DNA from: Botryllus schlosseri
Taxonomy: Eukaryota
Reading direction: 5' to 3'
NCBI GenBank assembly: GCA_051294905.1
Contig: CM119371.1
Coordinates: 22,570,001 to 22,634,000 of the forward strand
Length of the DNA: 64,000 bases
Below, in pieces: positions 31,869 through 59,714 of this stretch. Position 1 is the first letter of the stretch; the number at the start of each line of letters is the position of its first letter. A program made the translations under genes and the position numbers. Under the pieces are notes generated by a model. The model was not told the origin of the DNA, searched no databases, and saw only the letters and a list, made by a program, of their open reading frames with translations.

Positions 31869-32616
31869 GGAGGATCACAATACTTGTAGTTGAAAACTGC
31901 AAATAGCGAAAAGTAATTCAGTAAGACTCGAAATATGACGACGTAGAAGTATTAGTCATAGCGGTAAATTAGATTTACTTGAGTAAGTGTTGCAAGGGTA
32001 CGAATACTACTTGGTTATTTTGAAAAAGTTGTTGTACTTCGTTAACCTATACTTACCAGGTTATAGGAAATTAATTAAACATTAAACTCAACCAGCATGC
32101 TTCCCGTGGGGGCTACATTGGTCATTCCCCTAACACGAATATCGTTTATTAAGTCCACGCATACAGTGGTATAGTATATTTTAACCGACTGATTCCATAC
32201 GTCACGTACAGACAAAATTAAAGCAAGTGTAGGGACAACGTAGCAGCAAGTTTCGTGCTATGGAGAAATGTGTTTTATCCTACGTTATGATTTTTACAAT
32301 AACTGACTTTATTCAGCATATATTCATGACTGATGTTTTTAAATCAAAACAACTGACATGCCCGGGAGCTGAGTTATGACAAACCTAGCATATATGCCCA
32401 ATAATGGCCATATATCTCAAAGGTTACTTCAGCAAAATGTATCCTAAGTGACTGTTCAAGCGTATTCTAACAGCGCTGACTAGATACAAGTTTACATATA
32501 ACAACTGGTTTATAAGTATCGACACGATAAGAATAAATGTCATATACATTATATATATTGCCCTTCACTCCTTGGAATATATATCGAACTAATAAACACA
32601 CCTATTACATTCATTC

Positions 32617-33590
32617 GAGATGCTTGTTTTAAATAATGCCAGTCATAATTTCACTGTGAACATCAATCATAAACAAATCTCAATATGTGACTCAGCAAAA
32701 TATCTCGGCGTCACCATTGATTCCAAATTGTCTTGGAAGCAGCATATTGAATGCACAATATCAAAACTAGCTCGGTGTGTGGGAATAATGACCCGTCTCC
32801 AATCTTTGGTTTCCAGATCAGTGCTACGAACCATCTACTTCTCTCTTTTCCACTCTCATCTGCAATATGGAATCGTAGTATGGGGAAATGCATGCACCAC
32901 ATTTTTGTGCAGAATTCGAACCCTGCAAAACCGTGCGATACGGCTGATCTCATCTGTACCTTTACGTACCAATTTATCGCCTTACTACCGTAAGCATCGA
33001 ATTTTGCGAGTTGATGAACTATATCGCCTCGAAGTATCAAAAGTTGTTCACAAATATTTTTCCAATAGTCTGCCTCCTGTGTTTGATGACTTTTTCATAC
33101 CTGCTAAACATGTCCATTCACATTACACGAGATCCTCGTCTAAAGGAAACATCTACCTACCCCCACCCAATAGCAACCTAACTAAGAGATCTGTCGACTA
33201 CTCGGGACCTATCATCTGGAATGCATTACCACCACATATCCGTGAATTGCCCTATAATAGATTCAAAAAAGCCCTACTTGATCACCTCTTGTCGTTACAC
33301 TAACACTGTTGCCCTACCTCGCCCAGACATTGCTTCATTGATCATTTGCCACCATTGTTTAATTTTTTTTCTATTTCCTTCAACTAAACATTTCTTTACA
33401 GCCAGACTGTTCAGAGTCAAGTGTACCTGTTTGATGCTGGTGTGATCAGACTAGATGACCTTCACGGTCTTATCGATCATTCCTATCTAATACCGAATAC
33501 TGTGCACGCATATTTTCTGTACCACCATCACTGCCGTTTGTTATGTACTTTGGTTCGATGAAAATAAAGACTCTCTCTCTCTCTCTCTCT
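32617..33590 (+). mobile_element. 5'-truncated CR1/L2-group LINE: ORF2 C-terminus, 3' UTR and (CT)n tail
   Basis: ORF 32620-33303 has KYLGVTIDSKLSW, YFSLFHSHLQYGIVVWG, LQNRAIR, H.HYTR and G..IWNALP, typical of the post-RT region of CR1/L2 ORF2. The UTR has the CR1-like gactagatgacc motif, aataaa and a (ct)n tail. Confidence 0.92.
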
Positions 33591-35706
33591 CAAGATGAGG
33601 TAGCCTAATTTTATTCCCCGTGGATGATTTTCGGATCAATTTCACACATATCTCGTACCGACATAGGCTATATCTCTTCACGAGGCCTACGATAACTTAA
33701 GTTATCGTACAGTAATACACAATATTAGGATTTGCCATCATATAATTGGTCACCATGAGGAATTAGATTACACGAGGTGTATGTGCGAAGTCATACTGTA
33801 ATGCTTACGCAACAAATTGCACAGATGATAAAGCACCAACATGCTTGAGTAACGATCGATTACTACCAATGACATACAAGCTAATTAGTAAAAACTACAT
33901 TGGAATAATAGAGTAAGGTAAAAATTTGTGCGGGACTAAAATATTACGGCCAACGAAGATATCCAAGATCACTGACAATATAAATGGAAGTCTTTGTAAC
34001 ATATGGTTTAAACAATACAACAAAACCATCTCGCTCTCTAACAATACTAGGATGTTTGGAATTGGATGTCCATTGTAGAGATTTGAAGACTTGAATAAAA
34101 CGGTGGGTGTATAGTTTCGAAGGTATATGGTGTTGAGCTGTTACTCCTTTTGTCGATCTATGCCGCAGGCCCGCAGTATATATATATATATTATATGCCG
34201 ATCGTGTGCGGTTTGACAGCGTAGTGGTTGACTAAATACAAGCAGCAGATATCACGAAAACGTACCAAATAGTATAGGCCTATGGATTATTAGGACAAGA
34301 CGCTTCATCAGGCCACCGTTGGATTAGGCTAGCAGTCAGATCAAGGTAAGAGTTGCACTTTGAGATGATATTTGTTATTGCTTGCACAAAAAATTAAGTC
34401 CTATAGCATCATTCAACCTTATTTTCAGTGATGGCTGAGAATCACTGACATATACAGATACTGTTGGTTATGCATTACAGATATATACTTATATACATTA
34501 GGCCCTAAAGAAAGTAACAGAGATTTTGCGAACGTTCTGTTCATCTTCGTGTTTTGAATGAGAACCTGAATCACCTTCGTTGTAAGAACTATAGTAGCTT
34601 ATTCGCTATGAATATTTTTAGGAAATGTGAGAAAATCGCAGAAATCGTAAGAATATTGATAAGATCTCGTTGATGTTGGGTTCCTGAACTCGCTGCATCA
34701 GGGAGGCAGCAATAAATGAAATTCAACAGAAAACTAAGATGAAAATTGTATCACCAAAAACTATGCTGATTCTAAATAATGTCATGCCACTTCTTCTACT
34801 TGCTTCAGATAAAAACCGTCGAAAACAAGATCATGAACTTTATATCGTCACGCGCGATAGGAAAACCAACCACGTCCAACGCAACCGACCAGATTCTTAA
34901 TTCAAGCGGTATGTAATCGTCATGAGCCGCACAACAAAATTTGGTGGAAATGAGAGTCCCTTATATAAAACGAAACCTAACTCCAGATTGGCCGAAAAGG
35001 TAATAAAACATAATGATATCGCATATCGATTGCGCCATTTACAACATGCCGGCGTATTTTGATAAAAAACTATTATACAGAGGCAACATACATGAATTTG
35101 TGATCGAATTAGCATTCCAAAGTCGTGTGTTCGCTTTCAAATTTGTGTTTTCGAGGATCTTTTCCAGTTGCGTGGCCAAAAAAAAAATTGGATGTGCTAG
35201 ACATATATTTGATGAGTACCAGACCCCAACCCGAAAAAATATTATTTATTATAATATAATTAAAAATACGGTCATGGGCCTCCACTGGGCGATCAAAATA
35301 TATATTGTGTATACTCTTTATACATACATTTCGCAGAAACATATGAATATACCCTTTTCGCGCCAACCAAGTTACGCGATTGACGAACGAGGTGGTTTAG
35401 GTTATGGCAAACGCAATACTAACATGTTCAAGTTCATGTATATTGGCATATTGGCCCAAAATCTTATGAAATATTAACGTGACCACTGCCTATTGTTCCT
35501 AACTAAATTTGTGGGAGCACATGAGTCATTTTATCACCTGGTTTCGTCAACACGCCTCGAATTAAAATTCGAATCTCTCGAGGGTTTGCAGTTGCACGAT
35601 CACCATTATCCTGACGACTAGAGTATAGAAGGGAAAATAACGCTTTAAACGAATCTTAGCATAGAGACCTTCAATTTGGCGTAGTGATATCCAGACAAGT
35701 CAATAG

Positions 35707-37415
35707 TCACTTCAATTACGAGGAGAGAAGCCGATTCAACCATACGGCTCCATGGCTGATGGTGGATCGCCAAACGTCATCTCTTTAAACGGGATGAATG
35801 CTGAAAAAGTCGTCATCGTGCAGGGAAACACTGGCAGGTGAGTTATATCGCATAAATGAAGCGCATGTAATTATATTATCCAACTGTTACAAACCCTATC
35901 ATCAGACCAAATCAAGTAAACAAGAACAGAAGGAACAACAACAGGGCAAAGGGGAATAAAGGTTAAGTAACGATGTTAAATCTCTCCATATCATGATTTA
36001 GATAAGTGGTTCGTAAACATTTTAGCGCGAGACGCAAATCTGAATTTTATTGTCATGTTTTGACCCAAGCTTCCCACATCTAAACAAATACATTTCTAAT
36101 GTGAGTGCTCTAGGGGAGGATGTAGAAAAGAGAGTACCTGCAGACAACAGTTTGTACGCAACACAGTTCTATGGATTCACTTCAAAAAACCATTGCTACA
36201 GTGAGGTAGATGTCACATGATATTTCTCATTGATATTAATACTAATGCACAATTCTTGTACTGTGGTCTATGACCCAGTTGTACGCACATAAATGATACC
36301 CGAACTTTGTCTATTATATATAATTATTAGATCGTGTAACACGACAGTCTGCACATTTTCATGATAAATCCATATTGTCGTGACAACTTTTCTGTGCTTG
36401 TCGTTAATTGGCTCTAGTACCAGGGTTGTAACCAAGTCACAAGGCTCCGAGTCACAAGTCAATCTCACTTTTATATTTTTGACTCGAGTCAAGTCGAGTC
36501 ATTTTCAATTCCCTCCGAGTCAAGTCCGAGTCCAAGTCAGCAAACAGAGGATCGAGTCCGAGTCATGGTATTATGACTCGAGTCCGAGTCCAAGTCATTG
36601 TGTTGACTGCTCAGTTTCCGGTTGAAGTCTTCCTAAACTCACTTTTTACCTCTGTTTTGTGATATTGAATGGTTCGCATTTATAATATATCAATTTTACT
36701 CACTTTTAGCAGTTTCTGGTCGCATTTTCAAGCACCAGTACTACCAAACGAAATCCCAATAGTGTGTTGGCTTCGAAATGACAATGAAATGTCGGTCTTG
36801 GCCGTCTGAATCTCGAGTCAATGACTTGCTTCGAGTCATGCGCAATGACTCGAGCCCAAGTCGAGTCAATACACAGATTGACTCGAGTCGATTCAATTCA
36901 GTATTTTGAGAAAATGACTCGAGTCGAGTCGAGTCATCTGAAAATCGTGACTCGAGTCTGACTCGAGTCATTACAACCCTGTCTAGTACCCAACGCAATA
37001 GCCTTGGATATGCAATTGTGTAGCAGTTTCCCACATGAGACCGTGCGAAGCGCAAAGAAGCAGTCTCGGGATTTCAGCAATTATTACATACATATTTTAA
37101 GCGATCGCTTTGGTGGGGTCACCGCTGATCAACGGCCAATTGATTCCGTTGTAAAAATTCAATCTCAGATCCAAGTTATGCGGGATTGGAATCCGACGGT
37201 CGGCCTGTATATACGAAACCAGCAATGGGAGTAGATCAACATCAACTGCAAAGGGTATCCGTTCGCCTGTGAAACCAGGTATATTGATATATTGTGAATG
37301 CGTATTCCACTAAATGAATATATAGCAGATGTCAGAATGGAATTTATCTTTGTAGCAGATCCCATAGGTCATGAAATGACACGAATGGACAAAAAGACCT
37401 TCGAACCAGAAGCAG
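35707..37415 (+). other. Three candidate small coding exons (35707 or ATG 35752-35837; 37169-37278; 37359-37415)
   Basis: AG/GT-bounded, open and phase-compatible (phase 2, 1, 1): MADGGSPNVISLNGMNAEKVVIVQGNTG-R-SKLCGIG...SPVKP-D-PIGHEMTRMDKKTFEPEA. No recognisable domain. Confidence 0.4.
36421..36981 (+). mobile_element. hAT MITE with gactcgagtc subterminal repeats
   Basis: TIRs cagggttgtaa / ttacaaccctg; perfect 8-bp TSD tctagtac. Confidence 0.92.
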
Positions 37416-37767
37416 GTGACTACATGGATATGATAGATAGAGGATAATAAAATACATAAAAATGTAGTGTAATTAGCCATATTTACTTGAGTATGCACTA
37501 TTAGGAAACGGAGAAATACCTAGTATAGTGATGGCGCGAATGTTCGGCTCATGTTTTCGCAATGCGAATGTGAATCTCGGTAATTCGGATTCTTTCGCTC
37601 ACAAACGAACTTGTTATTGAAATGAAAGTAACTTCCAGTAACGTCAACGTCAGTGCTCAAAATTCTTTTAGAGCAAAAATTACATCCAACATAATCTAAT
37701 ATAATCCTCCAAGCGTTCAATAATACACTGGTTTTCGATAATTTGACTTGAAAAGATTTTGTGTTTC

Positions 37768-38340
37768 TGGATTATAAGATAACTCGTTTCGACCATCACC
37801 ATGTGCTTGGTGATGAACTGGGCCGGACAGAGATCATGACAATATATTCCGCTGCAATGACAGAGTTAGTTTTACGCTGTATATGATATTTACGGTACGT
37901 TGTGAAACATTGTGCATGAGATCAAGAACCATCCTTGAATCTTTATTATTTGGAATGAGTGCTTATATGCCTACTGGATCAAATAAATGACCTCAGCTAT
38001 GATACAACGTGACAACTAGGTCGCCCTAGGAACATCCTATGATAACACGTCCGCTGAGGTAATATCGATATGACTAATGTTACGAATGACACCAGTTGGA
38101 TTTTATTTGTTGAGTATCGACTATACCCCTGGGGCACGGAATGAAAATCAAACCAGCTTTCTAATGCTAATATAGTTGAGAAAATTCGACACAATTAATC
38201 CGAAATCTTTCAAATCAAATTTTCACCGTCGCGTTCGAGAGTTCAATGCAAATAAATATAGACATGGATATAAAGCACGTTAACTTGTATGAATAAATGG
38301 TCAGAGAGGGTAACGAAGCTCGATTTTGCTATAACACTGA
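37768..38340 (+). pseudogene. Possible heavily decayed protein kinase domain
   Basis: In order, with stops and frameshifts: ITRFDHHHVLG...TIY (N-lobe-like), WILFVEY (cf. YIVMEF), MDIKHVNL (cf. HRDIKLEN), KLDFAIT (cf. VADFGIS). Confidence 0.35.
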
Positions 38341-38444
38341 TATCTAGACATAAATTTCAGATGACTCAAAATGACTCCTGTGTTGAGAGAAACGAAATTG
38401 ATGAGTGGCAATCTTGAATCAATTCATAAATAACTGCTTATAGA

Positions 38445-40324
38445 TAGGCTGGGCAAAATCGAGTACCTGAGTGATTCGATTCAGAATCACGTATTATACT
38501 TCGAGTCGAGTCGAGTATTCGAGTATCACCAGGCCGTGTTATTTTTGGCATTTCAGGAGCCAGATGCCAAAACTGCCAAAAATAAAAATTTGAAAATGCC
38601 AAAAATAAGCAATTTTTGGCATATGCCAAAAATAACACGGCCTGCCAAATAGTGTATTTCGTTCATGGTGTTGTGTTACCAGGACCGCGTTACAAGCGAG
38701 AAGAGCGTTTGTGAAAGGCAGGTTTCTTAATCAGCGTTCAGCCCACCCATTAGGGGTGAAAGCATGGTGTCCTAAATGGTGTGGGCACAGCGAGATTGAA
38801 CAACTGACTTCATTTGGTTTACGTCATACTTTCCACTTGTCCAAAGGCAATTTTACGACCATTTTTGACCGGCTTGTCGAGCGCTAAATATGATAAAACG
38901 GGTATCAATGAGAAGCTGCCGCAGTACTGATTATTAAAATATAAATTATATTCTGCTCATGGAACTGGAACCCCCAAAATCAACCACGATTTTTGCATTG
39001 TGATGGAGTTGAACATTGTGACGCAACAAACTGTCTGGCTATTTCTGAGCGGCATAGTCTCGTTTTGCCAGACAGTCTTGTTACGTCAATGTTTTTAAAA
39101 AAGCTATAACCTTCCCAGGACTCTTCCATGCGAGTTGGTAATATTAAAGCCACCTAAAGTGACAAAAGTCCTCTGAAAATATATCGGTAGACTGAAGGAG
39201 AAATGATAGTCGGGCTACTAAATAGAATGTGTTGAGATAGACAACACAGGAAACGCCTGGAAAAGGATCGGGAAGAAAATTCTTTCCGCGAGGAGATCGA
39301 TGGCACTGGCGAAGTGAACTCTTTTCATGATGCATGGAAGCCGGTTCGGCCCTCCAAAGATTTTGAAGCTCTGAAAACCTTTTGTGGATGACTGGCAATA
39401 TTTTTTCCCTCAACGGCTACTGTTGAAATCGATATTTCCCAGATTCGCTGGGCGAGAAATGAATTTAGGAGAAACTTAGCTGACCTGAGTTTAGAAACAC
39501 TGTTACAGTGCAAACGATTTAAGTCCATTCAACAGCTGTAACAATCAGCTGTTGAGCGTGTTTGTTAGGCTTTTTTTTCTTTTTTTTTGCTGATTGGCAC
39601 CGATGGATACTGCACATTTTGTGGTTTATTTTGATATTATTAACTTATGAAATCGTTAGGTTTTTTCTTCTTCTTATTGTTTGTTGGCACTGATTTTACG
39701 TGGATGCTGCACATTATGTGGTGTCTTGTGACAAACTAGCCCAAAAAAAGCGTTTCTGTGACTAATTCGAGGCTGAAACTATCTATTTAGAGGACGATGC
39801 CAAAACTGCCAAAAATAAAAATCGAAAAATGCCAAAAATAAGTTATTTTTGGCAGTTTTGGCATATGCCAAAAATAACACGGCCTGAGTATCACTGATTA
39901 TGACGTAATAATGGTGTATAAAATTTCATGCTTCAAATATTTACCTTTTATGCTACCACAAAGAATATTATGCCTGTAATCCGTCACATTACCGATACTT
40001 TCGTATTATTTCGACTCAGCCGATTTCATTTCACTTTGTAACAATGTTGTGGGAGGATCATGACTTCGGAAATATGTTATTTCCAGTAAAGTTCGTAGCT
40101 TTGTACCATGATTCGTATGCTACGATACGCCCTATCAAGGTTTCAAGGCTTCCACAGTGTAAAATGGTATCGAAACCATAATTCTCGGCGATAAAATAAC
40201 TTTCAGTGGCGAGGGGCGTAAACTTCAGCCTACTCGAAAAAATCGTATTTTGCTACTCGACTCGAATCATTAAAGTAATTACTCGATTCAGATTCGAGTA
40301 CTCGAATCGTTGTGCCCAGCCCTA
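38445..40324 (+). mobile_element. hAT MITE (tagggctgggca family) split by a nested element
   Basis: Same family as 17857-18326; perfect 8-bp TSD cttataga. Confidence 0.9.
38530..39886 (+). mobile_element. 1.35-kb non-autonomous hAT element, copy 2
   Basis: Highly similar to 11275-12628; perfect 8-bp TSD agtatcac. Confidence 0.93.
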
Positions 40325-41658
40325 CTTATAGATAAGAATTCCACTGTATCGACCTGTATCAATCGTTTGATGCTGATATTCGTGTTCTCCAGCCATTGAT
40401 AAAATTTTCGCCGTTTGTATCGGTTCGCTGCATCGGAAAAACTTACAGGCACCTTGTCGACAAACTCAAATCATCATAGAAAACTGACGCAACACGCGAA
40501 ACACTGAAACACGTGACCGTGTGGTTGGACAACGTGATAACGTTTGATATTTAGTTCGTTTCGTGAGCAGATATGGTAAATTCCATAGCTGGAAATCCGA
40601 GCGCAAAAACATATGAAAGCTAGTCCAAATAAATGCTAGTGTCTATTTCTGTCATTATTATTGGAATCGGTCAGGGCGCTGGGACTCCCCAGAATAGCCT
40701 GAACATTCGAAAATATGGGAATTAGGGCGGTGCAATACAATGACAAATTGCTCCAATAGTCCAGATAAATGCAGACTGTTACCCCCAACAGCGATTTCTT
40801 GGAGCCACAGTGCCCCCAGATACGGAATCAATAACCCGCTGCGCCTCTGCTTTGTTTGTTTTGTTTAGGGGTATATTCATGGTGTTTGTCGACTACTATT
40901 GTTATTTACACCAGACCAATATTCTCCATTTTCATTCCGTAACTGCCGACCTGTAGCACGGCCCACTTCTTGGCTTTTTGTAAGACACCGCTTATGCGCA
41001 TGAGATGGCGTGGAGGAGCCTAGATAAAACTCCAATACTTAGGTAGGAATTCTGGACACCACCTGGTTTGGACTGGAACGCGCAACCCATTGGTGATGTG
41101 GCTGCGGATTGTACCACTACGCTATCACCCAACCCTGCGCCCCAGTGATTAAATAGTAAATTGCGTGGAATAGTTGCTCCACATGCCCGGCCCCTGCGGA
41201 AATTTTCATCTATACTCGCAGACAATACAACTATTTACATTTACCGAATCGGCGAGGAAGTAGCTTTCATGCGAAATAAGTTTTTCTAAATTTTGAACTC
41301 GGGTCGTCGGGCATAGCATTGCTACAGCTGTTTACGTCGGAAACGGAAATTGCTAGTGGTGTCCGGTTTCCCAACCAATCAGTCACATGTTTAGCATCTA
41401 TTCGATGGTAAGCATTCTATTTTCTAGCACGTCCTAAAGATGTGAATATAACGTCATATAAATGGTGGACGTGATATCTTGAAATAATAAAATTCACCGT
41501 TCTGAGCTCATAACGGTGTGTGTATTTCGTAGAGTTCATGACCTTTGATAATTTGTTGACTCTTAGTTCCTAGCCGTTTCCCAGATAACATTCAGGTGTA
41601 AAGAATATGATTTAACGCTAATATGTTGAAATGATTCACATTGTAACAAACTTATAAT

Positions 41659-41921
41659 CAGAGGTGGTCAGTAACGAAGTACTTATACTTTTTGAAGTAC
41701 TTGAAGTATATTTTGCATACTCACACTACTTTTTAAGTAGTTATGATTTTAGACTACTACTTTTACTTGACAGTTTTCAGTTTTGCATGCAAAAATAAGC
41801 GTAGAATACCTACTTACTTACTTACTTGTGAACCACCACTCCTACTTCTACTCGAGTAGAAATTCCGGCGTTACTTCTACTTTTACTTGAGTAGCGACGG
41901 TGACTACTTTGACCACCTCTG
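41659..41921 (+). mobile_element. hAT MITE with tactt repeats
   Basis: TIRs cagaggtggtca / tgaccacctctg; perfect 8-bp TSD cttataat. Confidence 0.92.
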
Positions 41922-42158
41922 CTTATAATATGGATGCTTGTATGCGTATCAGGGCATCCCTCTTACCTGTTACAAACGGAAGAGGCACTTCTACCAGCGC
42001 AAATGGAAAGTTTCATTTGGTTCTGGGTGTCATCTGAAACCTTGGGGACGTGACAACAATCCCATCTACTAAATTTTTCAATATATTAGTTGAATAAATC
42101 CATTTAGTTAACATACCCAAATAAATGAAACTGAATATCGATTTATTATTTCAATTAG

Positions 42159-42998
42159 AATGGATCAAGCTGTCGGACACAATCAAGATAGAGAAAAACA
42201 ACCCTCTTAAAAAAGGCACAATGATCTTCAGGGGCAAGAAAAAATTCTTGAATGGATGGCATGACATGGCGATCAAATTAATTCCTCACGACCAAACAAG
42301 TTTTAAAGAAGTAGAATTCCTATTGAAGCTCGGACAACATTCTAATGTGATTCTCGTTTATGACGCGGACGTGTACCGTCAGGCCTTGACATCTTATATA
42401 TACATTGTAATGGAATTTTGTCCCCAAACGCTGAAAGATTACATCGACGGATGCAAAGGGAAAAAAATTGACTTCGTAAGAAATTGGTCTTACGCGAAAC
42501 AACTCGTGGAGGGTGTTGCGTATATTCACAAGCACAATATCGTGCATCGCGATATCAAACTGGAAAATATACTTTTGACGAAGTGTGGTGACTATCTTCG
42601 GGTCGCGGATTTCGGTATTAGCAAGCAGATGAAGGAAGATCAATCCGTAGCCAACATCACCTCGCGAGGAATGGGAAGTGAAGGATTCCAAGCACCGGAA
42701 ATGTTAAAAAAGTGTCCCACGGCCTCTTTTTACTCAGATGCTTATTCAATCGGCATCGTCCTCAGCCTTCTTTTTTCTAATGGATATCACCCTTTTGGTT
42801 CCGATCAAAACAGATGGCGTACAAATATAATCGATCAAAAAGGACTTGACCTTTCCCATATTGTAGTTTTCGACAAACCATACACCACAAAGAGAACGGA
42901 ATTGATAACACTTATCAAGCTAATCCTAATTCGCAACTCGCGTAACCGCCCTCGTCCTGCGGATATGCTGGGCAATCCATTCTTCGAGAGACCCACAG
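42159..42998 (+). CDS. Ser/Thr protein kinase domain exon, IRE1-like family
   Basis: 840-nt phase 1-1 exon (ttcaattag| ... |gtgagt). Intact AIK, alphaC-Glu, HSNVI, VMEFC, HRDIKLEN, DFG, GSEGFQAPE, SDAYSIG, IRE1-type GYHPFG, and RP...L.NPFF. Gly-rich loop is degenerate (LKKGTMIFRG). Confidence 0.92.
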
Positions 42999-43711
42999 GT
43001 GAGTCATTCCGATTGCGTAAAGTTCCTCCGTGGAATGAAATCATGATAATGCGGGTAAGTCAACTGATCCCTGACCTTGGTCACAGAATATTTATCGATC
43101 AGAAATTATGCCGCGAAAATATTACGGTTCGGAACCACCTGCCTAAAGCAATCTGGAGATTTCTCTTTCGTGTTTAAAAATTTCGTCAGTGAACTGAAAC
43201 GTATATATTTCTGGTTTGTTGGCCACTTATAATATTTCCAAGAAAGCAAGGTACATACCATAATTACGGAATTCTAATTTTGTCGAAACTTGGGCCCTGG
43301 GGGATGGTGAATCGTTTCTGCGTACTCCCTAAAGATCACCATAACGTGCTCGTGACGTTCTTACAACATCCTCTTTATTTATCCATTCAAAACGGGTACC
43401 ATCTTGATTCAATCCTAAACTCATGCGGACCAAAACGTAGTGTCCGAGTATTACACCAGTGGTTCTCAACTGTAGGTGTCGATTGGACTGCTCAGGGGTG
43501 CCGCGAGAAAATGAGCTAAAATTATTTCCGATGACATAAAACAAGAGGGACTGTGCGTTCAAATTATGATCCGGTGTCAAATCCATGTTAGAAGTATTTT
43601 ATACAGTTTGACAGCAGCCATCCCCCCCCCCCCCCCACCCCCCACCCCCAACCATCCACCGTATTTGAAGTGCAGTGTACAGATTTTCACTAAAAAATAT
43701 ATAGGTATACA

Positions 43712-44502
43712 CAGGGTTGCCATCGACATGGACCAAAAAAAGGACAGTCGAAAAATTAGATAAGCATTTAAAAGCGTTTTCGTACGTACTGTGTATTTAT
43801 ACGAGGCGTGGCATATCATTCTTCATACTTTCGCCAGAGACAATCTGCTGCAGCAACTCCTCGTTATCAGGAAGCTTTTCATTGATCTCACGACCGCTCA
43901 GGTCTAGGTTTACCTTCACTCAGGGCCGAAACAGCACTTCGTCACCCCCACCCCCCTAAAAAAAAGCTTCTTCACCTCGCTGTGATTGGAGGCGTCAGCC
44001 AATATGGGAAAAGGCTGTACACCAAGTACAGCCAAAATCATTTTTGTCTGTATGGAGCAATATCTCCAGTAACAAGGCTTGTAGTCTTGGTCCTGGCAGA
44101 AGCAAACTACTTGCGATGTTATAATCGGGGAATATTGCGATGTGCAGTCGTTGATGAGGAATGATTGCTGGTTTTTGTCAGCATGGATTCCATGAAATGG
44201 AATGGTAATCCCAAGCTATCCTCAGCAGCAGCTGACACACTTCTTGTGTTTTGGGGTATCAATATATGTTGAAATAGCGGTCTTTTTCATATCGCCTCCA
44301 GGTCAATGACACAATTGCAAATATTGCAACTCAGATATCAGAGGAAAATGATCGAAGTTCTATAGTTGTAAAAATAAGACAAAATAAGGACGCAAGTCAA
44401 AAACAAGGACATTTCTTAGAAATAACGACGGTTGAGTTTTCCAAGACGTAGCTCTTCAAAATAAGGACAAATCTTAGACATAAGGACGATATGGCAACCC
44501 TG
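43712..44502. mobile_element. Old hAT-type element with aaggac repeats
   Basis: Inverted termini cagggttgccat / atggcaaccctg; TSD not conserved. Confidence 0.6.
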
Positions 44503-45863
44503 GATGATTTTGTGATATCGAAGTGACTCCTCCCTTCTTAAACCTTAGCGAAATTTCTGGTAAAATTTTGTTCACTCTTGCAATTTCGCGGTCCGATCAA
44601 GGCATAAAATAAATTTTAGATAATTAGCAGCCAATATGAACATGAAGAAATTATATCTCAAGATGCCAAGGTGGTTCAGAAGAATCAAGTATAGGAATAT
44701 TGGAAATGAATTGATGCCATGCTTTACACACAAATATACCATGACCCAGTGGTTATCAACGTTTTTGTCATTGCGGAACCCCTTTAAACCGTCACGGACC
44801 ATAAGGAACCACCCCTTCTCTAATGTTTAGTTGAACTGTACATCAATCATCGTGCAATCGTTATCTGCCATGTGTAAATATAAACTGTAGACTAGTGATA
44901 AAGATCCACAAAATGACTTTTATTGAAAATAACATTATACTATATACGTAAAACTCGGGAAGTCTTTCTGTAGCGAATTCTGACGCAGAATTTCTTTAAA
45001 TACGCGGTCGTCTTGCTTGAAAATCCACGCCGTCGAATTGATATGAACGGGTGACGAAAATCCATTTCCACAATAATAGGTGTTGACGAATGTAATATTC
45101 AACCATAACGCTTCAGGCGACAATTTTGGGCATGATATATATGGCACGAACATTGACAAACGAAACATAAAACATGCAGCCTAGTCATTTATATCTAGCT
45201 GATCTTCTTGAAGTTACTTTGGAACAGCGGTTATTTATATCACAGGGGAAAATGGATTTTGGAAAACCTATTTTTTTGAAAACCCTAGCGAAACATCTCT
45301 AAACAGCAATATGTTTGTATCAGCAGGCTATTTACTAATAGATGGGTTCTCAACTTTTCATGTATAACGGGCTTCCATTTGACAACTGAAGACGCTGCGG
45401 GTCGCACTACAATATATTACTTCACTGTATGTGCCAGTCGCGTTACTGTAACTGTTTTCGTAATAGATGCCTATATCACTTTGAACTGTCCTCACCTTGG
45501 AAGATTCAGTTTTATATGAGAAGTCCGGCGATTTGGGATCATTTCTGTGCAAACCAATCAACCATTTCTCCTTTCCTATCATGGATGGAGCCCTGAACCA
45601 ATAATTACAGGAGTCAGCTTTGTCAAATTGATGTTTTTCGCTGGCCCCCTTCCCGTGTTTGCTCTGCCAACAACTCCTCTGCAAATGTGTCCAGTCGAAT
45701 GAAATGCACCCAGATTATCAAGTATGCAATGTATGCGGAGATGCTAGGCTAAAGTAGCCTACGCGACGACGTGTTTCAGAAACTGCGATAAAAGATAGAC
45801 TGACATATCTGTTACTCTTCGGGTCACGGTTTAATCAGACAACAGCACCTTGCAATCTGTCAG

Positions 45864-45911
45864 GTGATGTTGTCCTTGCTACCAGTTCCGGAAATAGCGA
45901 AAATTCGCACG
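45864..45911 (+). CDS. Candidate 48-nt linker exon of the kinase gene
   Basis: tctgtcag| ... |gtgtgt, open, phase 1-1: GDVVLATSSGNSENSH. Confidence 0.3.
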
Positions 45912-46000
45912 GTGTGTCAAAGTATTAATAACATCAGACCTTCTCCAGCAGATTAATTGGCTTTAGCGAAATACCAAGCAATTTTGAACCATGTGTCTGT

Positions 46001-46241
46001 ACCGAGCGAGATAGTGTAATGGTTATGCGTCCAGCTTCTCGAGCGGTCGGTCGTGGGTTCGATCCAAAGACTCGAAAATTGGTATCCACAGCTTTCCTGC
46101 TATGCGCTCAGCAATCACGGATAGCATGAAATAAACGGGGGCGCAGACTAGATGACCTCATGGGGCCGCATCGCAACTCCGTCGTCAAAGCATCTCGATG
46201 GTGCAGGCGAAAAAGAATATCATATCTCTCTCTCTCTCTCT
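46001..46241 (+). mobile_element. tRNA-derived SINE (family 2; central region resembles the MetaSINE domain) with CR1-like tail
   Basis: A-box tagtgtaatgg, B-box ggttcgatcc, central ccaaagactcgaaaattggtatccacagctttcctgct..gcgctcagca, tail cagactagatgacct plus (ct)n; possible TSD tctgta. Confidence 0.8.
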
Positions 46242-47607
46242 GTAACTTTGTCGGCTATTTTAACAATCACTCGAAATAGGTATTACAGCTAGCTACGTTT
46301 TTCTAATATTACGTGGATATGTATTTTTGACTGCAGATGAAACTGTCGTGATACCATTTTGAGCTATGCTAAGCTCCGTTACGACAACTGTTCTTCGAGA
46401 AATACACATAGGTTTTCCATTTACATATGATAAAACAAAGACATTGTCCCACAGACCTGATTTCATCGTTTAATATCCCTTACTCTGTTCTTGTTTCTGT
46501 TCAAACCAGTTGCGGCGAGTGAAACACTATTGGAAAGTGTACTACGCAGCGAAATCCTCTTAACCGGACCCTAGACGAATACCGATTATTATCAAAACAA
46601 CAACAGTCTAAACTCAAGCATTTCAAGAAACCAAAACACATCAAAGAATGAGCAATCGGTAAACAAAACAGAGACGGTACGACAAGAGAGCTATGTAACT
46701 AAATTAATCAGTTACAGTACCGTATCATGAGTAAATGAGTTCATAATAAAGATGTTGCGGGCCGCAGGCGCAATTATCAATGAAATACTCAAATAACTGC
46801 GCTTCTACTAGTTGGGATTGATTCAAATTTGTTTTGTGTGGTTTTTGAAAACAACTCAACAATTTCATGGGGTTGATTGGAAAATTTGATTTTTTTTATT
46901 TCAAGTGCTGAATTAAGAATTTTAATTGGCTCTGCGGCCGCTTAGAACCGTTGGAATCGAACCGAAATTTGGTGTGCAGCCTTTGTTATGGTCACCTGAC
47001 AATTTAATCAGTGAATGGCAGGAATCCGAAAAGTTATTTTTAAACTTCGCTAATGTAAATGTTCATTTACATACTCTCGACTCGCCACAACATGTGTGCG
47101 CATCACACAACATAAGTAATCAAACGTCAAACATCAATAATTACGATACTATATTCGAATCGAAGAGTGGTGATTATCGTCCGTCTTCTGAAATGCAATA
47201 TTATCTGTTGATGAACAGACATGATGCATGACCGTGATACTCCAAATTACACTACTGTGTCTAGTATAGTGACTGGGCGCGGGAATAGCTCGTTACACAA
47301 CGGCGATAAATAATTAAGATGTGAAAAAGCTTAGTGGAGTTTACAAATCAGCATGAATTAACATGAATTTTTTTACATTAGGCAATCCTTAGTCTGTCTT
47401 AGTGGAGTTTACAAATCCACATGAATCCACATGATTTTTTACGATGGAGAGTGTTATGGCAATCCTTATTCTATCTTCGTGTGTAAGTGTAATTGTGAGT
47501 ATTCGGATACCAGGGCATAATTGTTTCGCTGAATATTCGTTGCACGCCACATCTCATGTAGTAGCCTAATTAGTAATAATTTCTCTTATGCAATATTGAT
47601 TTTGAAG

Positions 47608-47800
47608 GGGCTGCATACGGAATACACGGAAATCGGACTACGGAGTTGACATCTTCGACAGGGAAGAATAAAATCATGTACGAAATAGAGGAGCTTTACA
47701 GCCTTCGTGACTCGCCTTTGTCGAAGGCACGTCCACCGAATCTAGAAGAAATCATGAAAGCAACGGAACCGGCGAACCCCGAGCGGAACAGAAAAAGTCG
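47608..47800 (+). CDS. Exon encoding a 4E-BP-like eIF4E-binding motif
   Basis: ttttgaag| ... |gtaaat, open in phase 1: GAAYGIHGNRTTELTSSTGKNKIMYEIEELYSLRDSPLSKARPPNLEEIMKATEPANPERNRKS. Has YxxxxL-phi followed by RDSPLSK..P..L as in 4E-BPs. Not in the ORF track. Confidence 0.7.
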
Positions 47801-49876
47801 GTAAATATTGACTTCCTCACTTTCAGCACATGTTTATCAAATGAAGTAACGTAAATAAACCTATAATTAGGGCTGGACCGACCCGAGCACTCGAATTCGA
47901 ATCGAGTAACGATAATCGATATGATCGAATAACGATAAATACGCTCTTCACACTAAGGTTAGATATCACACAGTTGAACTGATTTAAGTACCGATGATGA
48001 TCGCAGTTTTCCAGACTAAAAAAAGCCATGATTATGAATCCTGGTTGATAGTAACGTCTCAACTTGGGGCCATTATTCATGCTAGAGATTTGCCCAACCT
48101 GGCAGTAATTATTTCTCCTTCACAGTAAATTGATAGTATACCATGAAGTTTATCCTTACCTTCCAGTGCATTCTTATAAAATATGTTACCATACTGACAT
48201 GGTAAAAAAGATTTTTCGTACAGTAATTTCGCACCTTTGTCGTACCAAGCAACACACATTTGAGTTGGCAGAGATTCCTTGCCTCGGTGTCATAGCAGGG
48301 CGCCATAAAATTGCGAGAAAATATTTACGTTTCGCCGATGACTATAGTTGGAAAGCCTTGCGTCTTGAAGCGTAGTAAGCCTAGTATACTACCGACATAT
48401 CTCAATATATATTGATGGTATTCATCAAGTACCACAGAAATAGGATAAACTTGTGGATCCAAAAGTTGATGCTAGAAGCCCCTGGTGGAATTGGTGGTCC
48501 GGAGTAGGGGGAGGCGGTAATGTACTGAAGAATTCTGTTTGGGAAACAATAAAATTGATAACTCTTTGCTCCATGAAAATGTATATATATATATATGAAT
48601 ATGTGATGACGTCGTCCGTGGTCGACTGGTCGTGCAAGGCGCACTCAATCGGAAATCTATACAAACTCATCAGATTCTCATTGCTGTGCAACAATAGTAA
48701 TTCAACCTAACAATCGCCAATGAACTCATATAAGACCATTGCGTCAATAGTGGCACCTTTCAGCGACGACAGCAGCGCAACGCACGATCCCACAGAAACT
48801 TTGTGTCAAGTGCATTTAGCCTTCAGGCAGCAATGTTAGCTTTCGCATAAATGATTTTCTGCGCCGCTTAAAGCTTTTGGACGATTTTTTTTAAATTTTC
48901 AGGTAAATACAGAACGGAGAACAGCTGATAAGTCCGAATCCGAATTGGTGCCAGATTCGTACTTTTTCAGATACGCCCGGAGTACGTGGGTGTAAGGTGT
49001 GGGATTTATCCAGATACAGGGTGGATATTGCCAGAATAGTTTTATTTGTGGTCGGAGCCGGATTGGATCAAGATTCCTACTTTTTCTGATATGTCCGCAC
49101 TCCGCAGTCATATTGGAGTGGACCAGGGAATTCGTCGATCTGTACAGTACTGGTTCCCACAGTTATGTTGCTGTTTTATCAAGGGAAATTGCCCATTCAA
49201 CTCTCGCTGCGTTTGAGGAATTACTGTGCGCTTTCGGCCCCCTTCGTGTGTGTGTTAGACAGTAATACAATATACAGGATTTGATGAATCGTTCGGTATC
49301 GAAATACTGCATATTACAAACCTGAAACTCCGTGCGGTTTGCACGATCAGTGCCAATTACTTCAGTGTAGAGCAGTTTTATTCATTAAACACGGACAGTT
49401 GGCTACGGTATTTCTGTATGACCATGAAACGTACAACTGATTTCCCCTTAATTCGGATAAAACCGTTTTCTCCGTCAAAAGTGAGCAGTACCAAAATATC
49501 CGGTATATGCGGAGTGGACCTCATGGCATACCTTATTCTTAATGTAAAGCTGTATTAGATAGTCTTTCGTATTCTTGCATATGTGTGTGATAATCAGTGC
49601 GTCAGTGGAAACGGCCTACCAATAGTTTAATCTCCAGCTTTCTAATTAACTGCCATTTCGTCGTTAGACTGATGAAAGTTTGACGAAACTTATCACTTGC
49701 AATGGGATGAACTGGACTAATGAAGGAATCTAATCCATTATTAGGTAGCAGAATATATCATATTAGCTATAGTCATATGTATTCAAGGTAACAACTACTA
49801 CGCTATAGTTACAAAGGGAACCAAACGTAACATTATCCTTATTCCATCAGTCTCCGTGCGTATACAAGGCCTATAC

Positions 49877-58375: not shown

Positions 58376-58642
58376 CTGTAAATTAAGCAAAATATTCGAT
58401 AGTCGAAATACAAACCGAAGTCAAACGAGGGTGTAGTGCCAGTTATCATGAATGGGCAAAAAATTTTCTGATAGCAATAAGCTACGTGCAGAGCGTAAGA
58501 TAAACGATAAACGTTATTGGTGACGAGCCTGTCATCGCAATTACTACAAAACATAAAACTAATAAGAAACCGGTGTGTGGACGAATACGATCCTCTATCC
58601 AGCATTCGGGCATTGCATCAACCTTGAACACAGTCCACTTAC

Positions 58643-58971
58643 CCCGACAAGTTTTTTCATTCTCTGTGCCTTTCCATAGAATAGCTCTTGCGATACTCCT
58701 CCAACTTAAAGTTTCGGAAGACCTAGGTGACTTTCTATATATGTGTAGCGTCGCCCAAAAGTGCTCGTCCGGCGTCCTGGTGTAAGAGGTCCAGTTGAGT
58801 AGCGCTCGGCCTTCTTCGCTATCTACGAGTGCCCATTGCAAATAGTCACGCGTAAAAATTGCGTACGCGATGTTCTTCGCGATCGTTAAATTATACGGGG
58901 GCGGCTCCAATAGCTGTTTCGACTGGTGTAGGACTTCTATTGTCTTATTTCCATATGTTGTGTCTTTAAGT
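58643..58971 (-). CDS. GCNT-like glycosyltransferase, penultimate exon
   Basis: ttttgcag| ... |gtaagt; PPPYNLTIAKNIAYAIFTRDY...LLNWTSYTRTPDEHFWATL...ARAILW...TCRG, with the catalytic PDE glutamate retained. Confidence 0.93.
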
Positions 58972-59714
58972 CTGCAAAATCAATCGCATGGTTGAATAGT
59001 AGCACAAGGCGCATAAGATGCTCTTAACTGAATACTTGGTCATACAAAAACTGAGAGTGTGATTTCTATTTGGCGAGGTATGACGTGGGTAATCCTTGAA
59101 TTGATGGCTGGAACAAATTAAGATCATGCTAAACTATGACGGTGCTTGGAATGGATTCATAGCGAACAGGAATGGAACTTCAAGATACTAGCGGGAATCG
59201 AAATGAACCGCCACTTTCAACTATCCTTTATAATTGAAACAAAATACCAACAGTATGTCCACTAGTTACCGTTTTGAATGAGCGAGTGCATGACGCATCA
59301 ACTTTTTCACTGCATATGTTTGCATGCGAGGTCGACCGATATTGATTTTTGCAGGCCGGTAACGATACCCATTATCGACACACTCCCATGGCCGATGAGC
59401 GATAACATATTCCGATAATAATATGGAAGGAGCATGATAACCATTTCACCCAAAATATGATATAATAGCCAAAATGGCCTCTGTACACGCCACATAAAGC
59501 TGAACAGCAAACAAGCAAACTGAAATCAGATAGAATTTTGCACATTCATTGGCATTTAGGGTAACCCAACAAGCAAAACTTGATAAAGAATTGCATATCA
59601 GTCCTGTAACGGTACATTTTAATGCATGAAGAACATTTCTCTGCATTTTCACCAGTTACACTTCCTGCAATTGTGCATCTGAGCCATTTCATTGTTAACA
59701 CGTTCACTTGGGAC

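Follow-up and report, generated by a model that had tools for sequence, protein, structure and literature searches.

A constrained 4E-BP-like exon downstream of a KEN-less IRE1-type kinase exon in Botryllus schlosseri: evidence for and against a single gene

We analysed a stretch of 64 kb from Botryllus schlosseri (C1:22570001-22634000, within a 495-Mb eukaryotic assembly; hereafter the window), in which an exon encoding a kinase domain of the IRE1/RNase L type is followed on the same strand by an exon encoding a peptide of the eIF4E-binding protein (4E-BP) type. Both modules are real and under purifying selection. Judging from the sequence, we give a probability of roughly 0.55 to the reading that the two exons form one gene and encode one protein. 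An earlier note on this DNA had proposed such a protein, and its proposal holds in part: the modules exist and their order, strand and phase are compatible, while the joining itself is something that we infer, with a weak acceptor and a stand-alone 4E-BP-like gene on contig C5 speaking against it. We favour one gene because the kinase family needs a downstream coding exon, the ancestral tail is missing, the 4E-BP-like piece has no start of its own and the gap between the two exons is otherwise unconserved. Both exons lie in a segmental duplication of at least 48 kb, as window positions 3941-51950 are colinear with C1:22712001-22755017, about 130 kb downstream, at an identity of about 83-96%. 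The two copies differ by several copy-specific insertions, for example at window positions 38460-40340.

The kinase exon is bounded by the acceptor ttag/AATGG at 42158/42159 and by the donor ACAG/gtgagt at 42998/42999, and its 279 encoded residues match the Pfam family Pkinase at 1e-39. Results of a comparison with solved structures in the PDB showed that the top 13 of the 60 matches listed were all IRE1 (2.8e-24 to 3.7e-22), with STK11 next at 4e-21. The alignment to mouse IRE1 spans residues 18-275 and includes the common motifs GSEGFQAPEML and SNGYHPFG and the closing NPFF/PFF; with these structural matches and the aligned IRE1-type C-lobe motifs, the description of the kinase as IRE1-like is well founded. 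It had also been called catalytically intact, which is mostly true: the VAIK (AIK) lysine, the alpha-C glutamate, HRD, DFG and APE are all present, but the glycine-rich loop is degenerate, with one of its three glycines kept. Considering that this loop is reduced to LKKGTMIFRG, catalytic activity is likely from the sequence but not assured. The earlier note placed the end of the exon in phase 1 right after NPFF; the phase is correct, but the exon ends four residues later, as NPFFERPT plus one G. Compared with the duplicate, the exon shows 89% protein identity, a synonymous divergence (dS) of 0.153 and a nonsynonymous divergence (dN) of 0.053, and hence a ratio of 0.34, or of 0.26 for the C-terminal two thirds alone. 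Both of its splice sites are kept in the duplicate, the donor as CAG/gtgagtcatt.

We also looked for the domains that accompany the kinase in IRE1 and RNase L. The KEN model PF06479 matched at 25 places in the genome and at none in the window, and the 87 plus-strand open reading frames (ORFs) between 43001 and 57901 gave no Pfam family at E<=0.01, which agrees with the earlier report of no KEN motifs downstream. On the upstream side, no Pfam family exceeded its cut-off on 73 plus-strand ORFs between 33302 and 42069, so that no luminal, transmembrane or ankyrin part was recognised there, in a search that short exons could escape. Genuine kinase-KEN genes do occur in this genome. One, on contig C16, is a frame of 1198 residues with a KEN match of 142 bits. 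In a second (L056, C3:46300-48100, minus strand), the kinase end HHLFWGGERTMTFIQ continues into KEN exons; there, the kinase end and the first KEN residues share one exon, without the phase-1 intron typical of the KEN-less family. Another kinase, at C3:55869, was considered as the owner of the KEN exons at 46-48 kb of C3 and rejected, as these exons follow the kinase end at C3:46300-48100. Expansion of the KEN domain apart from the kinase is described in Oikopleura and monocots in passages of PMC3710099, and those passages describe no expansion of KEN-less kinases.

The kinase of the window belongs to a large family: 139 of 270 candidates were scored, and at least 87 places in the genome match at E<=1e-10, many of them clustered on contigs C3, C4 and C10. 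Thirty loci were fetched. In 21 of them, a phase-1 GT with A or G as its next base lies exactly one codon past the FF that closes the kinase domain, and in seven, the window included, a phase-1 GT lies a few codons later; the remaining two are alignments that end early. A phase-1 acceptor directly 5' of the first Trp was found in 12 of the 30 loci, and the open frames of the family close on both sides of the kinase domain after a few to about 60 codons. These conserved phase-1 borders and closing frames indicate that the kinase domain is an internal symmetric exon and that a downstream coding exon is therefore required.

Outside this genome, a search of 1.84 billion proteins returned only family members as relatives, all of them proteins predicted on Logan or ENA contigs. 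They are at most 55% identical to the kinase, none of them exceeds 72% identity with a copy in this genome, and they carry long, unrelated N- and C-terminal parts that gave no match in the window. When the kinase was compared with longer proteins, nothing above 40% identity appeared among the matches listed.

The nearest paralogues within the genome are C10:10117851 (51% identity) and C3:20745823 (49%), and it is in these two that the tail exons downstream of the kinase were examined. Both have a terminal exon of about 265 residues ending in a stop, 8.5 kb downstream in the C10 copy (L054) and 2.3 kb downstream in the C3 copy (L055). These exons are homologous to the C-terminus of P0271, a protein of another species (5e-37 and 3e-20). 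The exon is helical and weakly TPR-like, and P0271 itself has weak TPR matches below the cut-offs. No match to this terminal exon better than E 0.04 was found in the 64-kb window or in 60 kb around the tandem copy. We then placed the window pair in a kinase tree of 53 rows, drawn from the 30 loci, P0121-P0150 and P0271 (rows with alignments shorter than 200 or 220 residues were dropped, and P0151-P0270 lie outside it), with a root set by midpoint only. The pair sits on a long stem (0.49) inside a clade with support of 100/98, in which P0123, P0271 and P0124 branch first, followed by the C10 copy and then by a polytomy that includes the C3 copy. These sequences are most simply explained by a loss of the TPR-like tail along the stem leading to the C1 pair. 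By the same paralogue exons and tree, the earlier wording that the 4E-BP motif stands instead of an RNase domain has to be corrected, since the tail of the immediate ancestor appears to have been TPR-like and not KEN.

The downstream exon was found as the earlier note had quoted it: positions 47608-47800, on the same strand, read GAAYGIHGNRTTELTSSTGKNKIMYEIEELYSLRDSPLSKARPPNLEEIMKATEPANPERNRKS with a phase-1 start. A profile search with Pfam eIF_4EBP (PF05456) matched it at E 5.2e-5 over profile positions 44-86 of 117, and the 23.5 bits obtained are just below the cut-off of 24; a paralogous exon on contig C5 reaches 39.6 bits. The genome holds three further family members. The first is a canonical intronless gene on contig C2 (L035 1495-1815, minus strand), with a frame of 106 residues that scores 128 bits and ends in FDIEM. 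The second is an ORF of 316 residues on contig C5 (L036 1444-2394, plus strand), with VYDRKFLL near its N-terminus and a proline-rich tail. The third is the paralogous exon itself, C5:17830591 (L037 1483-1764, minus strand), which is 52% identical to the window exon. The tandem copy of the window exon, at C1:22749740, is 94% identical to it. In the alignment of these five sequences, G18, Y24, L29, R33, S35, S38, P42, L45, I48 and T52 are invariant, among them the Tyr and Leu on which the earlier note had relied. We also considered the C5 exon as the tail of a BTB gene 6 kb upstream of it and rejected this, as the BTB ORF ends in a stop.

Several elements of canonical 4E-BPs (TPGG, TOS, RAIP, IPGVT and the Thr70-type site) are changed or missing in the window exon. 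It has SSTG for TPGG, Ala at the TP (Thr70-type) site and IMKAT for IPGVT. R-D-S-P, which corresponds to the phospho-regulated R-N-S-P (Ser65) site of 4E-BP1, is the only proline-directed site kept. A terminal motif of the TOS-like form F-[DE]-x-[DE]-x was looked for downstream and found in none of the three loci. In neither copy does an in-frame ATG precede the eIF4E-binding motif, except for the Met directly before Tyr24. In a retrocopy test, the window aligned with the spliced or the genomic C5 gene over the exon only (137 nt, 75%); the upstream flank did no better than shuffled sequence, and the downstream flank was weakly similar (58 of 2000 shuffles reach its score).

Comparison with the duplicate gives a clear picture of the selection on this exon. 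Its 53-codon core differs by six synonymous changes and no nonsynonymous change (dS 0.20), a pattern with a probability of about 1e-4 by chance, considering that 34.8 of the 159 sites are synonymous. The absence of nonsynonymous changes indicates that the exon is translated in the given frame in both copies and is not a relic. The stop lies at the same place, as TAA in the window and as TGA in the duplicate. The first 10 codons of the exon evolve neutrally, with a ratio of about 1. The 13 codons before the Met show one synonymous change in 39 nt, compared with about 15-20% elsewhere, and this segment aligns without gaps with the STTPGGTRIVY of the canonical 4E-BP. Compared with the older C5 exon, the window exon gives a dN of 0.35 and a dS of 0.58.

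We then considered whether the kinase splices to this exon. The gap between them is only 68-77% identical to its counterpart in the duplicate, compared with 85-98% for exons and flanks. No block within it is conserved with an open frame in the two copies, nor was one with an ATG found, and the 26 plus-strand ORFs of at least 40 residues that it contains gave no Pfam match. A conservation-based exon scan detected no convincing coding block besides the two exons. On position weight matrices (PWMs) built from the family, which are crude, as they rest on 20 and 28 sites, the kinase donor scores 11.6 and is among the top 0.08% of the GTs in the window. At the other end, the sole phase-1 AG in the open frame of the 4E-BP-like exon (ttgaag/G) is kept in both copies, and an internal AG at 47660 is absent from the duplicate. 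Both copies of the kinase exon end in a G, so that the split codon would be Gly in either (G/GG and G/GT). In the tandem copy, the borders that correspond to 42998 and 47608 lie at 22742418 and 22749735 of C1.

Several observations weigh against this joining. The acceptor at 47608 is an AAG with a poor pyrimidine tract; its PWM score of 0.4 is equalled by 21% of the AGs in the window, and the acceptor of the duplicate reaches 3.9, a value that 6% of AGs attain (for the 20 acceptors of the family, leave-one-out scores range from -4.3 to 15.8, with a median of 8.7). The exon scan also missed the upstream exons of the kinase gene, which means that it can miss short exons. As the duplicated segment extends over at least 48 kb, linkage of the two exons cannot be judged from their having been duplicated together. 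No eIF4E-binding motif was found in any of the 151 family proteins of other species, the sole regular-expression match being inside a kinase domain. As weak evidence in the same direction, a search of a large collection with the exon peptide gave no relative, either among proteins of 34-111 residues or among those of 112-2000 residues. Moreover, the C5 exon has a plausible first exon of its own about 920 nt upstream, with a donor cccag/GTAACG in phase 1, and this splice recreates ...SSSPG-GSKKIMYDR, close to the canonical TTPGGTRIVYDR. No kinase was found within 29 kb upstream or 20 kb downstream of the C5 exon (best tblastn E 0.026). With its own first exon and no kinase nearby, it indicates that stand-alone genes of this 4E-BP-like subfamily exist. 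Finally, a Met stands directly before the Tyr in all three copies of the subfamily, so that a mini-ORF of 42 residues is conceivable. As a separate observation on this region, the window has about 85 additional bases before the 47608 acceptor compared with the duplicate, and short dispersed repeats form a patch at 47320-47510, just 5' of the exon.

The last of these points lead to the alternative that the window holds two genes, which we regard as possible but doubtful. The 4E-BP-like exon would then belong to a small independent gene, reached through a short 5' exon, a spliced leader or the ATG before the Tyr (in the context AAAATCATGTA), and the kinase would end in an unconserved exon or by reading through into the intron. 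The independent C5 relative, the weak acceptor, the many AGs of the gap that equal or outscore the 47608 site, the Met shared by the three copies and the upstream exons overlooked by the scan are all compatible with such an arrangement. However, no ATG-bearing block is conserved between the copies in the gap of 4.6 kb (7.3 kb in the duplicate). In the duplicate, the one nearby candidate for an ATG mini-exon (from 47444) reads ATA and contains a stop. The 13 codons upstream of the Met are constrained and align with the canonical STTPGG segment. Reading through the kinase donor would give tails that differ between the copies (59 versus 15 residues), and the kinase would be left without an identifiable end despite being under purifying selection.

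We consider it improbable that the 4E-BP-like exon is an alternative or cassette exon, either confined to a minor isoform or spliced to the exon that precedes the kinase exon. Skipping of the kinase exon is possible considering that this exon of 840 nt is symmetric, in phase 1-1. The 4E-BP-like exon (then 189 nt) would be likewise symmetric if a GTCGGT donor at 47797 were used, and a further donor, GTAAAT at 47801, scores 6.8 (top 2.4% of GTs) and is kept as GTGAAT in the duplicate. On the contrary, the 47797 donor scores only 1.6, no constrained coding block was found downstream to 51950 in either copy, nor a TOS-like C-terminal motif, and the stop and an AATAAA are conserved right past the exon. 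We find it very hard to believe that the exon is no longer translated and represents the decaying remnant of a duplicated 4E-BP gene, lying near the kinase by chance: the score just below the Pfam cut-off and the lack of a start codon and of the TPGG, TOS and RAIP elements would suit it, but the core with its six synonymous and no nonsynonymous changes (about 1e-4 by chance), the frame open in both copies and the Tyr and Leu invariant across five paralogues do not.

Returning to a single gene, which we hold to be the most likely reading, the kinase is a KEN-less member of a large, fast-evolving family of the IRE1/RNase L type, whose genes combine a phase 1-1 kinase exon with a variable C-terminal exon. 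In the window copy and its tandem twin, the TPR-like terminal exon is missing and a start-less piece of a 4E-BP paralogue stands in its place, on the same strand and in the same phase. The predicted protein would consist of an N-terminal part, the kinase, a fast-evolving linker of 10 residues and an eIF4E-binding tail (YEIEELY, RDSP, IMKAT). This tail would dock on the dorsal and lateral surfaces of eIF4E and compete with eIF4G. Such docking would bring the kinase to the cap complex, or oligomers of the kinase would sequester eIF4E; in either case, cap-dependent translation would be lowered. We infer from sequence the splice, the binding to eIF4E, the kinase activity and the physiological role, and a shut-off function in stress or immunity, as put forward in the earlier note, can only be supposed.

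The binding step was also modelled. The 63-residue exon peptide was folded, without supplied alignments, with the class I eIF4E of the host (eIF4E-1, C2:23396814-23397293), which is encoded by an intronless ORF (L051:1441-2070, minus strand). The predicted complex, with the peptide on the dorsal and lateral surfaces of eIF4E, scored 0.86, and the best of three controls scored 0.00; this mark was reached by 51 of 78 solved complexes and by 2 of 108 mismatched pairs. Across the runs, contact agreement was at least 79% and the predicted local distance difference test score (pLDDT) of the partner was at least 67. The modelled contacts involve peptide residues 21-24, 26, 29-30 and 32-56, including Y24, L29 and Y30, and eIF4E residues 29-33, 40-46, 54-73 and 125-139. 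The model is compatible with a tail that would bind eIF4E; as complexes of eIF4E with 4E-BPs have already been solved, the high score may reflect structures known to the predictor, and it speaks for a resemblance to such complexes and not for binding by this particular copy. All three classes of eIF4E in the genome (I, II/4EHP-like and III; L051, L052 and L053) are encoded by intronless ORFs.

A wider scenario, which we hold as tentative and rather unlikely to be right in full, would make the kinase exon a constant module for sensing or dimerisation, to which interchangeable tails are attached at one phase-1 intron. The set of swappable tails may include the KEN RNase (IRE1, RNase L), the TPR-like tail of the nearest paralogues and the other tails of the relatives. 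In this scenario, the C1 pair would have captured a 4E-BP piece, would dock on eIF4E through it and, once activated, would shut off cap-dependent translation by sequestering or phosphorylating the cap-binding factor. Beside cleavage by RNase L and phosphorylation of eIF2-alpha, this would be a third route to translational arrest, in a rapidly expanding and probably immune gene family.

Considering known systems, the kinase resembles IRE1 and RNase L in its domain, which is closest to IRE1 among solved structures, in its C-lobe motifs and PFF ending, and in the effector at the C-terminal end of the kinase, here the putative 4E-BP-like tail. Unlike them, it has no KEN, its glycine-rich loop is degenerate, no sensor part was found on the ORFs at 33302-42069, and its family counts at least 87 copies, whose tails vary. 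The exon shares with 4E-BP1-3 and Thor the order Y-x4-L-phi, then R-x-S-P, then P-P-x-L-x-x-I, and aligns without gaps to the canonical 4E-BP of the host. It differs from them in not being a free protein of about 110 residues and in having no start codon, no TOS motif and Tyr at the phi position. Larger eIF4E-interacting proteins carry the motif in other architectures, such as 4E-T, Cup, Mextli, GIGYF and Angel1; they resemble the predicted protein in joining a linear eIF4E-binding motif to a protein that has a different activity, and to our knowledge none of them is a protein kinase and none has arisen from the 4E-BP family itself. Among kinases, MNK1/2 and the eIF2-alpha kinases PKR, PERK and GCN2 also act on the machinery of translation initiation when cells are stressed or infected. 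MNK1/2 differ in reaching eIF4E via eIF4G and not by a 4E-BP motif, and PKR, PERK and GCN2 differ in targeting another factor. Among the papers listed by a full-text literature search, none dealt with a kinase fused to a 4E-BP module, and we know of no example of a kinase with a 4E-BP-derived tail.

If the splice is real, this would be a protein kinase with a true 4E-BP-derived eIF4E-binding tail, an architecture absent from the 151 family relatives. It would also be a clear example from nature of exons shuffled at a conserved phase-1 intron, with one effector replaced by another, and would connect the kinase lineage of IRE1 and RNase L directly with the cap-binding complex. It would predict a binding to eIF4E that depends on the Tyr and Leu, competition with eIF4G and an effect of kinase activity on binding. 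If there are two genes, an orphan truncated 4E-BP paralogue under strong constraint would be left, of narrower interest.

Table 1. Coordinates of the features discussed, as positions in the window; splice borders are marked by a slash.
Feature	Position	Strand	Details
Tentative first coding exon	35752..35837	+	ATG start; reads MADGGSPNVISLNGMNAEKVVIVQGNTG; donor CAG/GTGAGT; phase 2
Kinase-domain exon	42159..42998	+	840 nt; phase 1-1; KEN-less kinase of the IRE1/RNase L type
Putative intron	42999..47607	+	4.6 kb (7.3 kb in duplicate); repeat-rich
4E-BP-derived exon	47608..47804	+	phase-1 acceptor ttgaag/GG; 64 codons; TAA stop 47802-47804
eIF4E-binding motif Y-x4-L-phi	47679..47699	+	YEIEELY; Y24 and L29 invariant in 5/5 aligned paralogues
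R-D-S-P	47706..47717	+	R33 and S35 invariant in five-sequence alignment
AATAAA, likely polyadenylation signal	47854..47859	+	49 nt past stop; kept in duplicate with >20 identical flanking bases

On the 5' side, the first coding exon listed in Table 1 is tentatively assigned to the kinase gene. Its ATG, open frame and donor are kept in the duplicate, with two synonymous changes and one nonsynonymous change, and the other frame is stopped there. As this exon ends in phase 2 and the kinase acceptor is in phase 1, at least one further exon must lie between 35837 and 42159. The candidate contains EKVVIVQGNTG, and V/I-rich Q-G stretches were also seen by eye in the N-terminal parts of relatives, for example AKVLIQGGDF in P0137; they may represent a shared N-terminal motif.

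The window has a GC content of about 40% along its whole length. The host genome combines spliceosomal introns with many intronless genes. Five matches to the CCT family are single open frames of 554-608 residues and other CCT genes are split into exons; IRE1 is intronless, as are several CCT subunits. Within the gap between the kinase and 4E-BP-like exons, a C-rich homopolymer-like tract lies at 43621-43655, and a repeat with a tRNA-like box (GGTTCGATCC) at 46001-46240 is 81.5% identical, inverted, to C1:22726480-22726739. ARAGORN called no tRNA on this repeat, which may be a short interspersed element (SINE). Upstream of the kinase exon, an open frame of 235 residues at 32596-33303 (plus strand) is missing from the tandem copy, has no Pfam match at E<=0.01 and may be part of a mobile element. 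Towards the far end of the window, an exon at 58482-58979 (minus strand) matches the Pfam family Branch (core-2/I-branching glycosyltransferase) at 3.2e-6 and 27.3 bits.

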